Shown here: positions 1,471 through 59,554 of the stretch, in pieces
Layout: every line of letters starts with the position of its first letter
How positions within the stretch are numbered: position 1 is the stretch's first letter
Origin: Mobula hypostoma
Taxonomy: Eukaryota
Direction of reading: 5' to 3'
DNA length: 64,000 nucleotides
Assembly: GCF_963921235.1 (NCBI RefSeq)
Contig: NC_086097.1
Location: forward strand, 158,226,001 to 158,290,000
Translations under genes and position numbers: made by a program
Notes under the pieces: model-generated
What the model was told of the DNA's origin: nothing
Seen by the model: the letters and a program-made list of their open reading frames with translations, nothing else
The model's database searches: none

Positions 1471-2489
1471 TGTCAATAAAGTACGGGATTCATGAGGCTG
1501 GCACATTTTAAACCCCATGTTTAAATATCTTTTGAGAATTGAGGAAGAATTCAAGAAATCTTTTTTTGTTCACATATTGCCTTGAGAATGGAAAGTAGAC
1601 AAAATGTGAATGCCTTATTAGCAGATGGAAAGGTGGTTCAATTATCTTTGGTGCTCAAGCTAAACCAGTTGGCCACCACTAACTGCAAAGATGCATGAAC
1701 CTGAAGTTAAAATAGGATTGAATGGACAATATACAACCTCATTTCCTGTGAAACGTAGGACCAGTTCTTATAATTTAAACCTAATTAGTTCTGTTTACAA
1801 GAAAAAAAAACCCTGACTCTTGTGTGAAGAGGAAGAATGGAGTCCAGGCATTCCACACATTAAAAATAAATCAGTGCAAATTTCTTAGTGCAACAGCTTC
1901 TTCTCCCGACAGTTTTTGGATTTTGTGTCACCCAATTAATGTTTCCTATTCACTTAAGTTTTTGTTTCCATTCCAATACAACATCGTGGGTCTTTAGAAC
2001 CAACAAAATCACCTTTGTTTAGTAACAGAAAGCTTTCAATTATTGTGTGGGCACAATGCTCTGTAACAGAGGGCTAGTAAAGACTATCTTATTCCATGAA
2101 TTGCATCTTTCTCCATAATGATGTGATTAATGGAAGCTTTCAGAAAATAAGTTAATGTAAGAAACATAGACTGCAATAGTCGGAGAGCAGTAGTTAGAAT
2201 GCCAGTCACTGGACCACAGACCCTGTTGGGTGACTCAGACTGTGGATACTGGTTATTGCAAATTCTGCTTGTGTACTGACACATGAGCATCTTTCTTCCC
2301 TTACTAGAGACCTCATTACCAGCTCCCACAATAATCAGGCTACATGGCAACTGCTCTGTGCCAGCATTGTGCACTCTCACTGTAATCATAGTTCAATTGA
2401 TTATCTAGGCTAAAAGCCCTAGCTGTTAATCAGGAGCAGTTTAGATCTGATAACTGCAATGAGTCATAGTGGTTCATGAAGGCCTCCCT

Positions 2490-2760
2490 CCCACAAGTGC
2501 AGATGCAGAGTTTGCAGGTTCTTGTGTGCTTCTCCCTGTGTCAGTATAAGCTTCCTCCCACATCCCAAAGCCTTGTTGTTAGCTTAATTGGTTACTGTAA
2601 ACTTCCCTCAATGCAGGGGTAGCCAGAAAAATCAAAGATGATTTGATGGATGTGTTTAAGAACACATGACAGAAAAGTAAGTGGGGGAAGGGGATTGATG
2701 GGAATGCTCAGAGGGCTCAAATAGACTTGATTGTCCGAATGGTCTGCTTTTATGTCATAA
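2490..2760 (+). mobile_element. V-SINE/HE1-like SINE, decayed
   Basis: gagtttgcaggttct..., ttcctcccacatcccaaag core and a CR1-like 3' tail, shared with the copies at 4995, 36405 and 59555. Confidence 0.6.
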
Positions 2761-3330
2761 GCAAATATAAAATAATATGAATATGCAATATGAAGATGAA
2801 GAAAATGGCTGATCTGCTCCATGTGCCTTCAGCAGGATGATTCCTGCCACCCTCCAGCCATCAGCAGCCATGTATTCCTGGAGGACAGAGGCAAAAACTA
2901 GATGAAACATAGCTAAGCTGATTTAAGGGGAAAATCCAGAATATTGCTCTTTGGCCTAAGATGTTGATTCAGACTAATTATGATTCCATCTGCCTCTTGA
3001 AGCATGAGAACTCACCCAGTAGTTACACCAGCTTTTTCATTTGAAATAAACAAGAAAATTGTGTAAAATAAAAGAAGCCAATCAGGCAACATCATTCAAA
3101 GAAAGATCCAATTAATAGGCTGCAGGAAGCTTTTAGCTGGCAGCTCTGGAGGAGTGCTCTGATCTGCTGCTTGGTATTCCTCTCAACTGTACCAGCACAC
3201 TGAAAAATAAAGCCAAAGGCAAACTTGGAGATCCGATACCGATGCATCCCTCTCTGCTTTGCACAGAGGACAGGTATAGAGCATAGACAATATAAAGAGA
3301 GGGGTTAGTTGCACCTTTCAGATGGTAACG

Positions 3331-3895
3331 TAGAAACATAAAAAAAAACCTACTGCACAATACAGGCCGTTCCGCTCACAATGCTGTGTCGAACATGTAC
3401 TTAGCACTCTGTTTTCTTAAGCTCCATATACCTGTCCAGGAGTCTCTTAAAAGTCACTATTGTATCCTCCTCCTCCACCACTGTCACTGGCCCCCTATTC
3501 CATGTAGTCACCACTCTCTGTATGTAAAAAAAAAACAACTTACCCTTGACAGGTCCTCTGTACCTACTTCCAAGCACCTTAAAACTGTGCCCTCTCATGT
3601 TAGCCATTTCAGTCCTGGGCAAAAGCCTCTGACTATCCACACAATCAATGTGTCTTCGTCATCTCGTACACCTCTATCAAGTCACCTTTCATCTTCTGCC
3701 ACTCCAAGGAGAAAAGGTCAAGTTCATTCAACCTATTCTCATAAGGCATGCTCCCCAATCCAGGCAACATACTTGTAAATCTCCCCTGCGCCCTTTCTAT
3801 ACTTTCCACATCCTTTCTGTAGTGAGGTGACCAGAATTGAGCACAGTACTCCAAGTGGGGTCTGACCATATCCTACATAGTTGTAACATTAGCTC
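3331..3895 (-). mobile_element. CR1 (HER1-like) LINE 3' fragment
   Basis: ORF 3645-3869 VRPHLEYCAQFWSPHYRKD...GDLIEVY and ORF 3401-3640 RGHSFKV...FKRLLDRYM are typical of the CR1 ORF2 C-terminus. Confidence 0.9.
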
Positions 3896-4994
3896 TCAGC
3901 TGGTAGGTGCAAGAAGAACAACTGCAGCTGTTCAGATATCTTGTAATCCCAAAGGGAAGAATGCATGTTACTTTGATTTATTTTCATAATTTTAAAATTA
4001 GTGTCTAATAATTTCAGATACTTTAACTTTTGATGTTTTTTATTTAAATCTTTTAAAGCTTTTTTAATGTATCAGATTTTGAAAAGCCTTTAACAGTGCT
4101 TAGCCAGTCCTTTTGAATAGGTTTGTGCTAGTGGCACCAATTTGGACCACACCTTGGATAATCAAGCCCAATATTTTAGCTCATTGGCCTCTTTTTGTAT
4201 GAAAGTGTGCAGTGGATTGACATGAACCAAAAACTAATAAATTTCATAAACCTGTCTCGTGGGTAAAGAAGAATCTCATTATCATCTGAAACATTTAAAT
4301 CTTCTCTCTTTTTCATAAACTTGTGAGACAAGCTCTCATTACCATAAAACTCTTTCAAAAGCCTGATTTCCCCTTCTTGAGGTCAGATTGTAAAAGTGCA
4401 AATTGACAGATAGCCTTATTGACTTCAACTCAGTGGAGTTATCATGGCAGCCAGGGCTCCAGGTTATCATAAGAATGTCTTCAGTACAGTCATACAAGCT
4501 TCTGCCACTGTACTACTTTACACCTGTTCTACTCTCCTGGTGAATCTAAGTTTTTAAGAAATGAGGAGTTTAGAGTTAGAGCTTCCTTCAATTCGGTGTA
4601 ACATTATTCTTCCATGACAGCAATTGGAAAGTTCAATTGTGGCTCACATCCAAACTTAATGATTAGAATTTGGTTTGGGTTTGCTCACCATATCCAGAGG
4701 AGACAGGATGAGACTGAGATATTATGGGTGGGCCTTTCCACTGACACCCAACTCATAATCAATGAATAAACTAGTTCAAGTATCTGGTCCCACTGACTGC
4801 CAGCCAAATGCAAGATATGTTTATATGTTTATATGTAGATATGTTTAAAATTTCAAGTAAACGGGGTTATGCAGTGAATGGCTGATGGAAAGCTTAAGGG
4901 CCGGATGTGAAGCATACTAATCCCGTCACTCGGTATGATTGAGTTTCAGTACTGGGACTTAATGCAACAATATAGGAGAATTTCTGATTCCTGC

Positions 4995-5278
4995 ACTGGT
5001 CCCTCACAACGCCAGCAACCTGGGTTTAATATCGTCCTTAGATACATCTGTGCAGCATCATCACATTCTACCTGTGACTGCTTGCATTTCCTCTGCATGT
5101 TTTGGTTTCCTTGAGTCCCAAGGAGGCATGGGTTAGGTGATTATGTGAATGTTGAAAATCTCCCTCTATTGTGTAGCATCTGAAAGGAGTTAATAGGAAT
5201 GTGAGGGGGATTAATGAGCAATTGATAGCCAATTTGAGCTTATGGGCTGAAAGGCCTGTTTCCAAGTTGTATGACTGA
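4995..5278 (+). mobile_element. V-SINE/HE1-like SINE
   Basis: cctcacaacgccagcaacctgggtttaat (tRNA-like head), V-domain-like core, and tail gggctgaaaggcctgtttcc...tgtatgact. Confidence 0.65.
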
Positions 5279-57017: not shown

Positions 57018-57186
57018 ATTTATGTTCAAATTGTATTTGGATGTGCAGTCTAAGACCTCTGTGGAGCAAGTTTTGGAAAATGGGATTAGGTGAGAAGCTC
57101 TTTATTTTGATTAGGCTGGAACAAATATGACTGCTTATTCTTTCAGACATTCAGAAGGTGCTTGGCAACCTGTTACCAGTGGGGTG

Positions 57187-57738
57187 TATGGGGTGTCAGG
57201 GAGGGGTAGCACCTCTGGTGGGGGAACATGTCGCGTCCTTTTCAAGGTGGTTAGTCCACCTTTGGTCCCCACCTGGCACTCAGCTCTCACCTGTGGCTCC
57301 CCGTAGCTGTTTGTATGCGACAGCGGCCACACCCCGGGCAATGGCTTTGACAAGCCGGCTAAACCAGGTGAGGGTAGCCGATGGGTCTCAAACCCTCAGT
57401 GAGATAGCGAGTTGTCTATCCCAGCATGTGAAGACAGACTCCGGCAGATTGAGCGGACGAGACCAATGGAAGGCCCAATGGTCAAGAAGGAGGTCTCTGC
57501 AAGCGTCGTGGAACGTGTAGAGCACGACAAGACACAGAAGACGTCCTGGTCATCCACTGCACCTAGTCCCATCTCCAGCCGTCTCGACTCTGTCTTGCCA
57601 CTGGATCCAGATGGGAATTGGGAAGAGAGCGTGAGGCTGACACTGCGCAACTCTCCTTCACTTAAATCCAAATTGTGCTAGTTTCGACACCATCATAATA
57701 GTGTCAAGGTCCTCATTGATGTCGACGATGGATGAACA
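57187..57738 (+). mobile_element. Apparently full-length non-coding retroposon (552 bp) headed by an HDV-like ribozyme, inserted in a decayed CR1 RT
   Basis: TSD accagtggggtg 57175-57186 / accagtgggatg 57739-57750 splits the CR1 VTSGVPQG motif. A homologous copy lies at 115-549. Confidence 0.85.
57190..57374 (+). ncRNA. HDV-like (nested double pseudoknot) self-cleaving ribozyme candidate
   Basis: P1 GGGGTGT 57190-57196 / ACACCCC 57329-57335; P2 CTCTCACCTG 57284-57293 / CAGGTGAGGG 57365-57374; P3 GGC 57295-57297 / GCC 57326-57328; L3 TCCCCGTA; P1.1 CC 57299-57300 / GG 57336-57337; GCAA; P4 GGCTT/AAGCC; J4/2 GG-C57359-TAA. Confidence 0.75.
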
Positions 57739-59554
57739 ACCAGTGGGATGCCACAAGGATTTGTTTACATTATGTGTTGGAGGAATAAAGTGAATGGACA
57801 TTTGGCCAGATTTGTTGATTACATAATAATAAGTGGGAAGGTTAACTGATGAGGCCGGTGACATAGAGAGAGATATTGATAGGTTAGATAGGCAGGCAAA
57901 TGATTGGTGAAAGGAAAGTAATCCAGGAAAATGAGCAGTCCTTTATGTTGAGAAAGAAAATTCCTATTCCTTGTGTTCTTTATTTAATTATGCAATCTAT
58001 CTCTTTAGAATTGCTGTATAAAAGCACTCCCTACCTTTTGGGTACTAGTGTCTGCAGATAACCTTCAGAGAAGTGCTCTGATAGGAATCTAAGGATATTG
58101 TGAACAATTCTTGTTGCAAAAAAGAACCTGAAAATATTTTGGCTTTGTGTGATGTGAAAGTGAGTTTTAGCGGTGCTTCAGGCCATAATTACCTCTCACA
58201 TAGGCAAACTGTGGCTGCAAATTTACCCTAAATTTACATGTTTGGTTTGACATTTTCTTGAAAACTGTTTCCACATTAAGTGAACTTTGAAGTGTACATG
58301 TTTTTATCATTCTTAAAGACTTTGATATTTCAATTTTAATCTCATGTCTTTGTGGTCTTTAGTCCTAATTGCACTCATCTCAGCCTGGGCATCAGTCCTG
58401 GCTGCACTTAACTTTTGTGGTAATGGAACTTCTATATTGTCAAGGTCTTAAACGTAGTGGCGATGCTTGTAGGCAGCCTCTGCACCTCAGCCAGTGCATG
58501 TATCACCCATCAATGTCTAGTCCTCCAGCTCAGGATGTTGTAGAACTGGATCTACACTTTGTGGTGATTCTTGCTACAAAGGATGAGATCAAATGCAGAG
58601 ACATCTTAGCTCCAGTGCATTCAATGCAGGGTGCAGGAGTAGAATTAATGAATCTTCTTACCTGTGAGAAAGCTATAATAGCAGACCTCTATCACCAAAT
58701 CTTCATGAACCGTTTTCTGTGAGTTTGGTGGTAAGAAACATTGGTTTTCCATTTGCACAGAATTTGGCCCATACCTCTCATTAGAAGTATCCCTCTGTTG
58801 CAATGTAGAAGGCTGGTTTCCTGAAACATACTTGCCATGATTCTTTGATTTTTGTAAGGTGTTCTGTTCTCTTTAGATCTTTTGCGTGTGCTGTGGTGTT
58901 TTCTAAAGGCAGTGCTAGATGGCTGCTTATTGCTATTAACCATTGCTTCGCATGAAGGTGGAAGAAATTTGCCTTCTGAACTCTAACTTGACGGCTTCGG
59001 TGGTTGCAGTCAATTTTTCATCAGAGTGCTTTGTATGCTTAGTAAAATCAGTTTAAATGTATACATGGTGTATTTTCCAGCTTGATTTGAATCAATATAG
59101 CTGAGGTTCTATTGATGAAAATCAAATTCTTGGAGGGTTCACTCCGTTGTCAAATCCTTGGCTCTTCCACCAGCAGCAGCTATATGATTTTCTTTCCCTT
59201 TTTTACTCCCACTCCTTTGGGACACATTATCTCCCCCCCCCCCCGCCATGAGTGGAATCTGAGTGGAGGCCCTTGAGGTCAAATTTCTGTTCATCCCATC
59301 AGACTTATAAATGTTTCTGGACTTGTTGACTTGATTTGCATGTTATTTTTGAGTTGGTGTGTACTCATCATTTTTTTGTTGCACAGAAATCCTTTTCAGA
59401 AATTGGCATGTCTGTTGTTTGAAGGTTATTCTAGCAGTTCCCGGACCAAGTCAGTGCTTAAGTTCTAATTGAAAGTACATCATGATTTGCTTCTCATTCC
59501 CTGCTGGAAAACTTGGACAGAATCGCTGTCAAGTAAGCTCATGTGTTGCCTCTA

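Follow-up and report, generated by a model that had tools for sequence, protein, structure and literature searches.

The element at positions 57181-57740 of the window, that is, of the whole 64,000-nt stretch of Mobula hypostoma DNA analyzed here, is likely an internally deleted RTE derivative with an HDV-like ribozyme head, which is predicted to cut at 57180/57181, and with a history of spread in trans. It joins the first ~520 nt of a LINE to the last ~40 nt, ~3.5 kb with the endonuclease/RT frame having been lost. Covariation supports an HDV-like fold for the first 194 nt, a nested double pseudoknot in which J1/2 forms a large domain and L3 has an additional helix on its 3' side. The initial annotation of this DNA described a ribozyme-headed SINE-like family. 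A high-copy non-coding retroposon is indeed present, but its head proved to be the 5' end of an RTE LINE, so that the element is an internally deleted RTE.

Structure and origin of the element

The window is rich in repeats and has a GC content of ~40%. The element, referred to as the window copy of family A, is a bipartite non-autonomous RTE element of 560 nt on the plus strand. Downstream of the predicted ribozyme it comprises the rest of the RTE 5' non-coding region, common to the autonomous element (57375-57699), and the RTE 3' terminal ~40 nt with a (CAA)n tail (57696-57740). It is flanked by an exact TSD of 9 bp (57175-57183 and 57739-57747), the final three G of the left copy doubling as 5' bases of the element; the duplication had been noticed before, but with coordinates that fit a 12-bp version with one mismatch, which includes element sequence. 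No tRNA, 5S or 7SL-type head was found (ARAGORN, 0 tRNA genes; Rfam, 0 matches), the head being LINE 5' sequence, and the two plus-strand ATG frames tested (110 and 71 aa) gave no Pfam match, in agreement with the initial description of the element as non-coding and without a tRNA head. Furthermore, Pfam revealed no host exon among the 95 open frames of at least 85 aa in the window, the matches being RT and ALKBH8_N only.

In the genome searched, a 3.48 Gb assembly of 200 contigs, one head-anchored locus runs on into coding sequence. Locus L181 is a ~4.1 kb element in which family positions 3-524 are matched at 96.7% and the 3' end, the sole LINE 3' end examined, matches family positions 518-553 (36 nt) at 83%; between these shared ends lies a broken APE-RT frame (RVT_1, E 1.6e-24). 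The majority sequences of LINE and short element are 99.0% identical over 521 nt and contain the same ribozyme, and in 17 of 30 LINE loci, those extending to positions 1-3, the 5' 520 nt including the ribozyme are continuous with the LINE's own 5' end. The LINE with shared ends that the initial annotation proposed to look for is thus an RTE LINE of the same genome. The partner LINE, which probably belongs to the RTE clade and which we take to be 'BovB-like', has a single APE-RT frame in ~4.1 kb, with its best named vertebrate match in Pelodiscus sinensis (80%). The RT piece gave 2,250 homologues among 7,983 scored candidates, mostly APE-RT proteins of ~1,060 aa. Stretches of RTE-1_PSi and RTE-3_AMi given in the PMC5786205 supplement resemble, by eye, 57535-57690 and 57698-57740.

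The insertion sites point in the same direction. In 27 of the 28 TSDs described below (one was dropped as a doubtful G-run match), the TSD starts with A in 24 cases and is preceded by T in 24, a T|A signature that agrees with the Tn-TA insertion signature reported for Bov-B/RTE elements (PMC13295347, section 3.2), with the T-rich stretch peaking at -13 to -15 and not at ~-10. Like bipartite RTE elements, the element combines a lack of coding capacity with TSDs and a (CAA)n microsatellite tail. Since its head is the 5' end of an RTE LINE from the same genome, it is an internally deleted RTE of a known kind, and the shared ends and TSD signature therefore define a bipartite non-autonomous RTE rather than a SINE with a new head. 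A true SINE that acquired its ribozyme head independently and was joined to an RTE tail would also be expected to lack an ORF and to reach a high copy number, but this scenario is highly improbable given the continuity of the head with the LINE's own 5' end, and it is already contradicted by L181 and L186-L215.

Two other searches for the partner were set aside: PF20049 led to another RTE lineage (L051), 30 loci showing no DNA likeness, and PF00078 returned yet another LINE family. L051 (reverse strand, 2189-5242) represents an RTE-like lineage whose open frame encodes 1,018 aa and whose tail is (GAA)n, without a ribozyme-model match. L091-L120 belong to a young, very abundant LINE family, whose open frames reach ~1,264 aa and which dominates the RT search (332,532 candidates).

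The deletion junction (~57696-57699) sits in the loop of a 9-bp hairpin (57685-57706), the arms of which derive from the LINE 5' region and the LINE 3' end. Long-range pairing of these arms may have guided the deletion. Loop-length variants of the hairpin make up subfamilies.

Copy number and variants of family A

The genome search returned 4,605 candidates, and all 39 other scored copies were full length at 94%. With 2,161 occurrences of the deletion-junction motif (control 1), family A comprises at least 2,161 copies. A further 249 matches were obtained with a pattern that mostly caught junction variants; it was designed to exclude the short element by its 3' end, and its loci served as a 5'-unbiased sample. 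A 14-nt head motif common to relatives occurs 2,866 times (control 80). The element has thus spread to thousands of copies. Family A is young, the 30 best copies, a set biased to close copies, differing from their own majority by a mean of 2.2%, while the window copy is 4.9% diverged from the majority of 29 others.

A number of loci depart from the common structure. L168, L175 and L176 have an extra segment of ~145 nt at the junction, after family position 517, which looks, by eye, like the tRNA-derived head of a SINE, with A and B boxes; related sequence stands alone in L182 and L206. A ~3 kb RT-bearing insertion splits the family A copy of L185, the first 149 nt of the copy in L180 are inverted relative to the remainder, and L174 holds two copies in tandem.

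The predicted ribozyme fold

All components of an HDV-like nested double pseudoknot, i.e. P1, P2, P3, P1.1 and P4, are found in the right order. P1 consists of 7 bp formed by a first heptamer (57181-57187) with 57329-57335, opens with a G-pyrimidine pair at its 5' end and is paired in 92.2% of alignment cells. The 96-nt J1/2 domain (57188-57283) is closed by a basal stem (57191-57200 with 57272-57281) which sequesters a second copy of the heptamer (57190-57196). The 5' strand of P2 (57284-57294) pairs with 57363 and 57365-57374, with one bulged C. P3 (57295-57297/57326-57328) encloses L3 within 57295-57328. L3 opens with UCCCCGU (57298-57304), including U57298, C57299, C57300 and G57303, and C57299 and C57300 form P1.1 with the GG at 57336-57337. 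J1.1/4 is GCAA (57338-57341), completing the segment 57329-57341 that starts with the P1 3' strand. P4 is a 6-bp hairpin (57342-57357; 57342-57347/57352-57357), and J4/2 is GCUAA (57358-57362) with C57359 as the predicted catalytic base.

The canonical HDV L3 loop has 7-8 nt. The loop of the window copy departs from this by a 21-nt insertion (57305-57325), placed between L3 and the P3 3' strand, which contains a 5-bp helix (57306-57310/57320-57324) and a variable loop. This was missed in the initial annotation, which claimed a complete HDV fold, even though P2 (57284-57293/57365-57374), P3, L3, the P1 3' strand, P1.1, GCAA, P4 and C57359 had all been placed correctly. Its two stems within J1/2 are matched by complementary sequence, but the one at 57217-57223/57267-57273 forms only in the P1 register assumed there and not in the favored one. 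The substitutions of the window copy within the ribozyme fall in J1/2, in two loops and in the first P4 pair, which is U-G here and C-G in the family, leaving the core untouched.

The descriptor for the fold was drafted after sight of the window sequence, so its statistics are only a guide: it matched 1 of 5,000 dinucleotide shuffles of 57181-57376, 0 of 20 shuffled windows and 0 of 30 unrelated RT loci. In the window it matches solely at this element, and only when the L3 insertion is allowed, the canonical-L3 descriptor giving no match. Across loci it passes 24/30 best-match, 10/30 3'-anchored, 6/30 head-anchored, 5/30 LINE and 0/30 family B loci; on the majority sequence of family B the regular expression failed, though the core as printed shows the elements. 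Rfam gave no match at the gathering score over the whole window, nor at E<=10 over 57100-57800; the models of Rfam 15 do not recognize the L3-extended head. The helix-in-L3 descriptor matches 11 of the 17 metagenome loci described below, while Rfam-type models give nothing on the window copy. Plain folding energy is unexceptional (z -0.93), as expected since the structure is a pseudoknot. This z-score and the lack of an Rfam match would also suit a chance arrangement in a G-rich repeat; however, the rarity of descriptor matches in shuffles and in unrelated RT loci, together with covariation in P1, P2, P4 and the J1/2 stem, leaves that explanation next to no credibility.

Competing folds weigh against the model. 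A pseudoknot-free fold reaches -79.3 kcal/mol, compared with -66.3 for the native nested fold plus -16.8 for the P2 duplex, before any pseudoknot penalty. When the upstream flank is included, the best fold pairs L3 with 57187-57193. In family A, L3 (57299-57305) is complementary to this stretch, which lies between and extends into both heptamers, and such pairing would be expected to give an inactive alternative fold. The L3 of family B does not have complementarity to the inter-heptamer stretch.

P1 register and 5' boundary

As the P1 5' heptamer is present twice (57181-57187 and 57190-57196), the predicted cut depends on the register. The upstream heptamer is favored by the 5' ends of the family, by the TSD edges, by the folding energy and by compensatory changes seen in distant relatives. 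The element starts there, and the cut is therefore predicted at 57180/57181, between U-1 and G1, at the modal 5' boundary of the family. Of the 30 loci selected with a 3' pattern, 17 begin at the 57181 position, and 57190 is not used by any of them. A second set consisted of 30 LINE loci selected through sequence outside the shared region: 12 of these begin at 57181, 17 at one of the first three bases and one at 57190. Pooling of 5' ends retained 106 of 120 loci after removal of duplicates and of loci below 85% identity: 60 start at position 1 and 77 at positions 1-4, starts before position 1 being unscorable because the query began there. As the initial annotation had anticipated, the ends thus cluster at a P1 G. 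Contigs from two other organisms have loose ends at 57180-57181 as well.

TSD edges agree with this boundary. A TSD of 8-13 bp that ends between -5 and +4 of G1 is present in 28 of 47 full-length copies, and in 12 of them it ends exactly at G1. The bases upstream of G1 are mixed except for a T at -1 (42/60 copies, 70%), which lies inside the TSD in 13 of 20 cases.

A cut at 57189/57190, with P1 formed by 57190-57196, had been proposed in the initial annotation; it lies 9 nt too far downstream and we consider it very unlikely. In the window copy the second heptamer is equally complementary to 57329-57335, and this register still pairs 90% of P1 cells, because of which the counts alone do not exclude it. 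Moreover, one of the 106 copies starts at the 57190 position and one a base earlier, leaving room for occasional use. Against it, 60 of 106 copies have their 5' end 9 nt upstream, covariation links the second heptamer to 57272-57281, and neither L216 nor L218 can form P1 in this way: in L216 the second heptamer and its J1/2 partner change together, and in L218 a P1 G-C to U-A exchange is accommodated only in the first register. The nested energy is also ~10 kcal/mol worse (-56.5 vs. -66.3 kcal/mol), and a cut there would strip the first heptamer from daughter copies. It is the 5' ends, L216 and L218, and the energy gap of 10 kcal/mol that exclude this register in favor of the first heptamer.

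In L014 and L138, and by eye also in L009 and L028, an extra TAT precedes G1, outside the TSD. These are the same three bases that precede the second heptamer, and they may have arisen by cDNA slippage between the heptamers.

Comparative analysis and covariation

A search with the core pattern led to 17 metagenome loci, while viral contigs gave 0 matches. Thirteen sequences were aligned: two from family A (the window copy and one other), two from family B and nine of the 17 metagenome loci, the remaining loci being truncated, degenerate or redundant. With P1 formed by the first heptamer and the second heptamer held in the J1/2 stem, 92.4% of cells are paired and both partners change in 16 of 44 pairs, i.e. 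pairing is conserved across copies, as the initial annotation had proposed. None of 500 shuffles reached the observed level and slid controls paired 38-45%, although the shuffle counts are not probabilities and overstate independence because the 13 sequences form about six related groups. Changes on both sides affect five of 11 pairs in P2 (96.5% of cells paired), six of ten in the J1/2 stem, three in P4 and two in P1. P3 and the L3 helix are uninformative for covariation because they are largely fixed by the search pattern, and for the same reason the invariance of the L3 helix ends is not independent.

The equivalents of the catalytic-core bases U20, G25, C75 and A78 are invariant while the stems covary. 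The conserved U and G of HDV-type L3 form a reverse wobble (PMC3774820, section 12); both counterparts, U57298 and G57303, are invariant in 13/13 sequences, the U being fixed by the search pattern and the G free. GCUAAA, i.e. J4/2 with the predicted catalytic C and the downstream A, is likewise invariant (13/13), although the pattern left it free. Fewer non-CpG changes than expected are seen at core positions in two of three copy sets (8 vs. 17.6 and 38 vs. 53.6; P 0.009 and 0.016 against base-matched flanking positions), while the 30 LINE loci gave no significant excess of core conservation (40 vs. 45.5, P 0.23). The reduced variation of the core may reflect selection among source copies.

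The metagenome contigs L217, L218 and L219 are 73-79% identical to family A over ~500 non-coding nt. L216 precedes an endonuclease-like frame that belongs to a more distant element, and L219 represents a short bipartite element in its own right. Judging from sequence similarity, these matches suggest a wide spread of the lineage, possibly by horizontal transfer. When a covariance model was run on 60 unrelated LINE loci, no additional family emerged.

Proposed mechanism of spread

Family A copies would be transcribed by read-through from host promoters, and the ribozyme would then cut between U-1 and G1 using C57359. Cleavage would remove the upstream host RNA and leave a uniform 5' end, and the released RNA would be retrotransposed by the parent LINE protein in trans through target-primed reverse transcription. 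This last step is proposed because of the shared tail, the 8-13 bp TSDs and the RTE-type T|A signature. The cleavage model draws on HDV chemistry (PMC1874588) and follows the precedent of R2, L1Tc and RTE (PMC3774820; PMC6765202). The genomic HDV ribozyme cuts fastest with U-1, >25-fold faster than with G-1 (PMC1874588). U-1 is present in the window copy and in 70% of full-length insertions; as this T is mostly derived from the target, new copies would tend to land in a context that favors cutting. No tested precedent for an insertion in L3 of the ribozyme could be found in the literature searched.

The same fold could also serve another purpose, with an internal Pol II promoter of the head determining the 5' end. 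In this case the pseudoknot would cleave weakly or not at all and have a protective, protein-binding or translation role, or both functions would coexist as in Pr77 of L1Tc, in which promoter and ribozyme share 77 nt (PMC3383444). Sharp 5' ends are equally expected from an internal promoter, the T at -1 could be an element base, and competing folds have similar energy. In addition, contigs of presumed RNA runs extend across the 5' junction into the flanks, although these fit incomplete cleavage, antisense RNA or DNA alike. Evidence against an internal promoter comes from the invariance of the four catalytic-core equivalents while the stems covary, the coincidence of the 5' boundary with G1 of P1 to the base, and the location of the -1 T mostly within the TSD. 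We regard it as unlikely, albeit the most serious competitor of self-cleavage after read-through.

Comparison with known elements and significance

Ribozyme-headed non-autonomous retroposons, bipartite RTE derivatives and predicted RTE ribozymes are all known already (PMC3414825; PMC4035085; PMC5786205). The bipartite RTE elements RTESINE1/2, WALLSI3 and MAR4_MD (Kojima, 2018; PMC5786205) likewise consist of RTE 5' and 3' ends, with no ORF and a CAA-type tail, while the heads of WALLSI1, 1A and 2, as printed there, are unlike the family A head. R2 SIDEs are also internally deleted, retain the 5' ribozyme and the 3' end and are mobilized in trans (Eickbush and Eickbush, 2012; PMC3414825); however, they belong to the R2 clade, are rDNA-specific and are described as rare, whereas family A derives from an APE-type RTE and its thousands of copies are dispersed. 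Dispersed short retroposons with HDV-like ribozyme heads are found in NARTc, RIME and SIDER with L1TcRz, several of which are active in vitro (Sanchez-Luque et al., 2014; PMC4035085). In contrast to family A, these belong to the trypanosomatid ingi clade and have a compact 77-nt ribozyme that doubles as a promoter, and the consulted sections of that paper mention no L3 insertion. An HDV-like fold at the RTE 5' terminus, with a proposed role in freeing the element from host co-transcripts, was reported by Ruminski et al. (2011), as cited in PMC5786205 and PMC6765202. Finally, twister variants of the Perere-3 RTE likewise process the RTE 5' end from host-promoter transcripts, but they represent another ribozyme class and their P1 derives partly from the target site (PMC8501958).

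In the literature searched, no description was found of the L3-extended ribozyme or its L3 helix, nor of a high-copy element of this lineage with such a head, though Ruminski et al. (2011) or Repbase may cover them. We tentatively propose, with slightly less than even confidence, that an undescribed HDV-like subclass, distinguished by the L3 helix and by a duplicated P1 strand held in the J1/2 stem, heads a widespread RTE lineage and its short derivatives across animals and escapes Rfam and canonical descriptors. It would place on the order of a thousand or more predicted self-cleaving sites in host DNA, a sizeable share of them intact, with the RTE nuclease supplying U-1 by cutting after T.

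Such a head is a candidate explanation for the defined 5' ends of an RTE lineage that is poor in promoters. PMC5786205 left open the question of why the bipartite derivatives of RTE retain the extreme 5' end, and here too the ribozyme offers a candidate answer. The findings also expose a blind spot of HDV ribozyme searches, namely a helix within L3. Intact copies in sense orientation within introns could, if active, cut host pre-mRNA. Furthermore, opossum RTE-1_MD serves as a gene-writing tool, with templates containing its own UTRs (PMC13708176), and if its UTR has the same ribozyme, this would be relevant to template design.

An older related family

Family B comprises 5,819 candidates with 74-79% identity to the window copy of family A and is the older of the two. 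Its copy in the window lies at ~114-560 on the minus strand, and L061-L090 are the sampled loci. The doubled head and the ribozyme core are the same as in family A; because the middle of L3, J1.1/4 and the 3' tail differ, its LINE partner is probably a different one. In ~13 of 30 family B loci, including the family B copy in the window, a 5'-truncated B is fused to a shared unrelated repeat, presumably DNA-transposon-like, and the two together form an amplified chimera.
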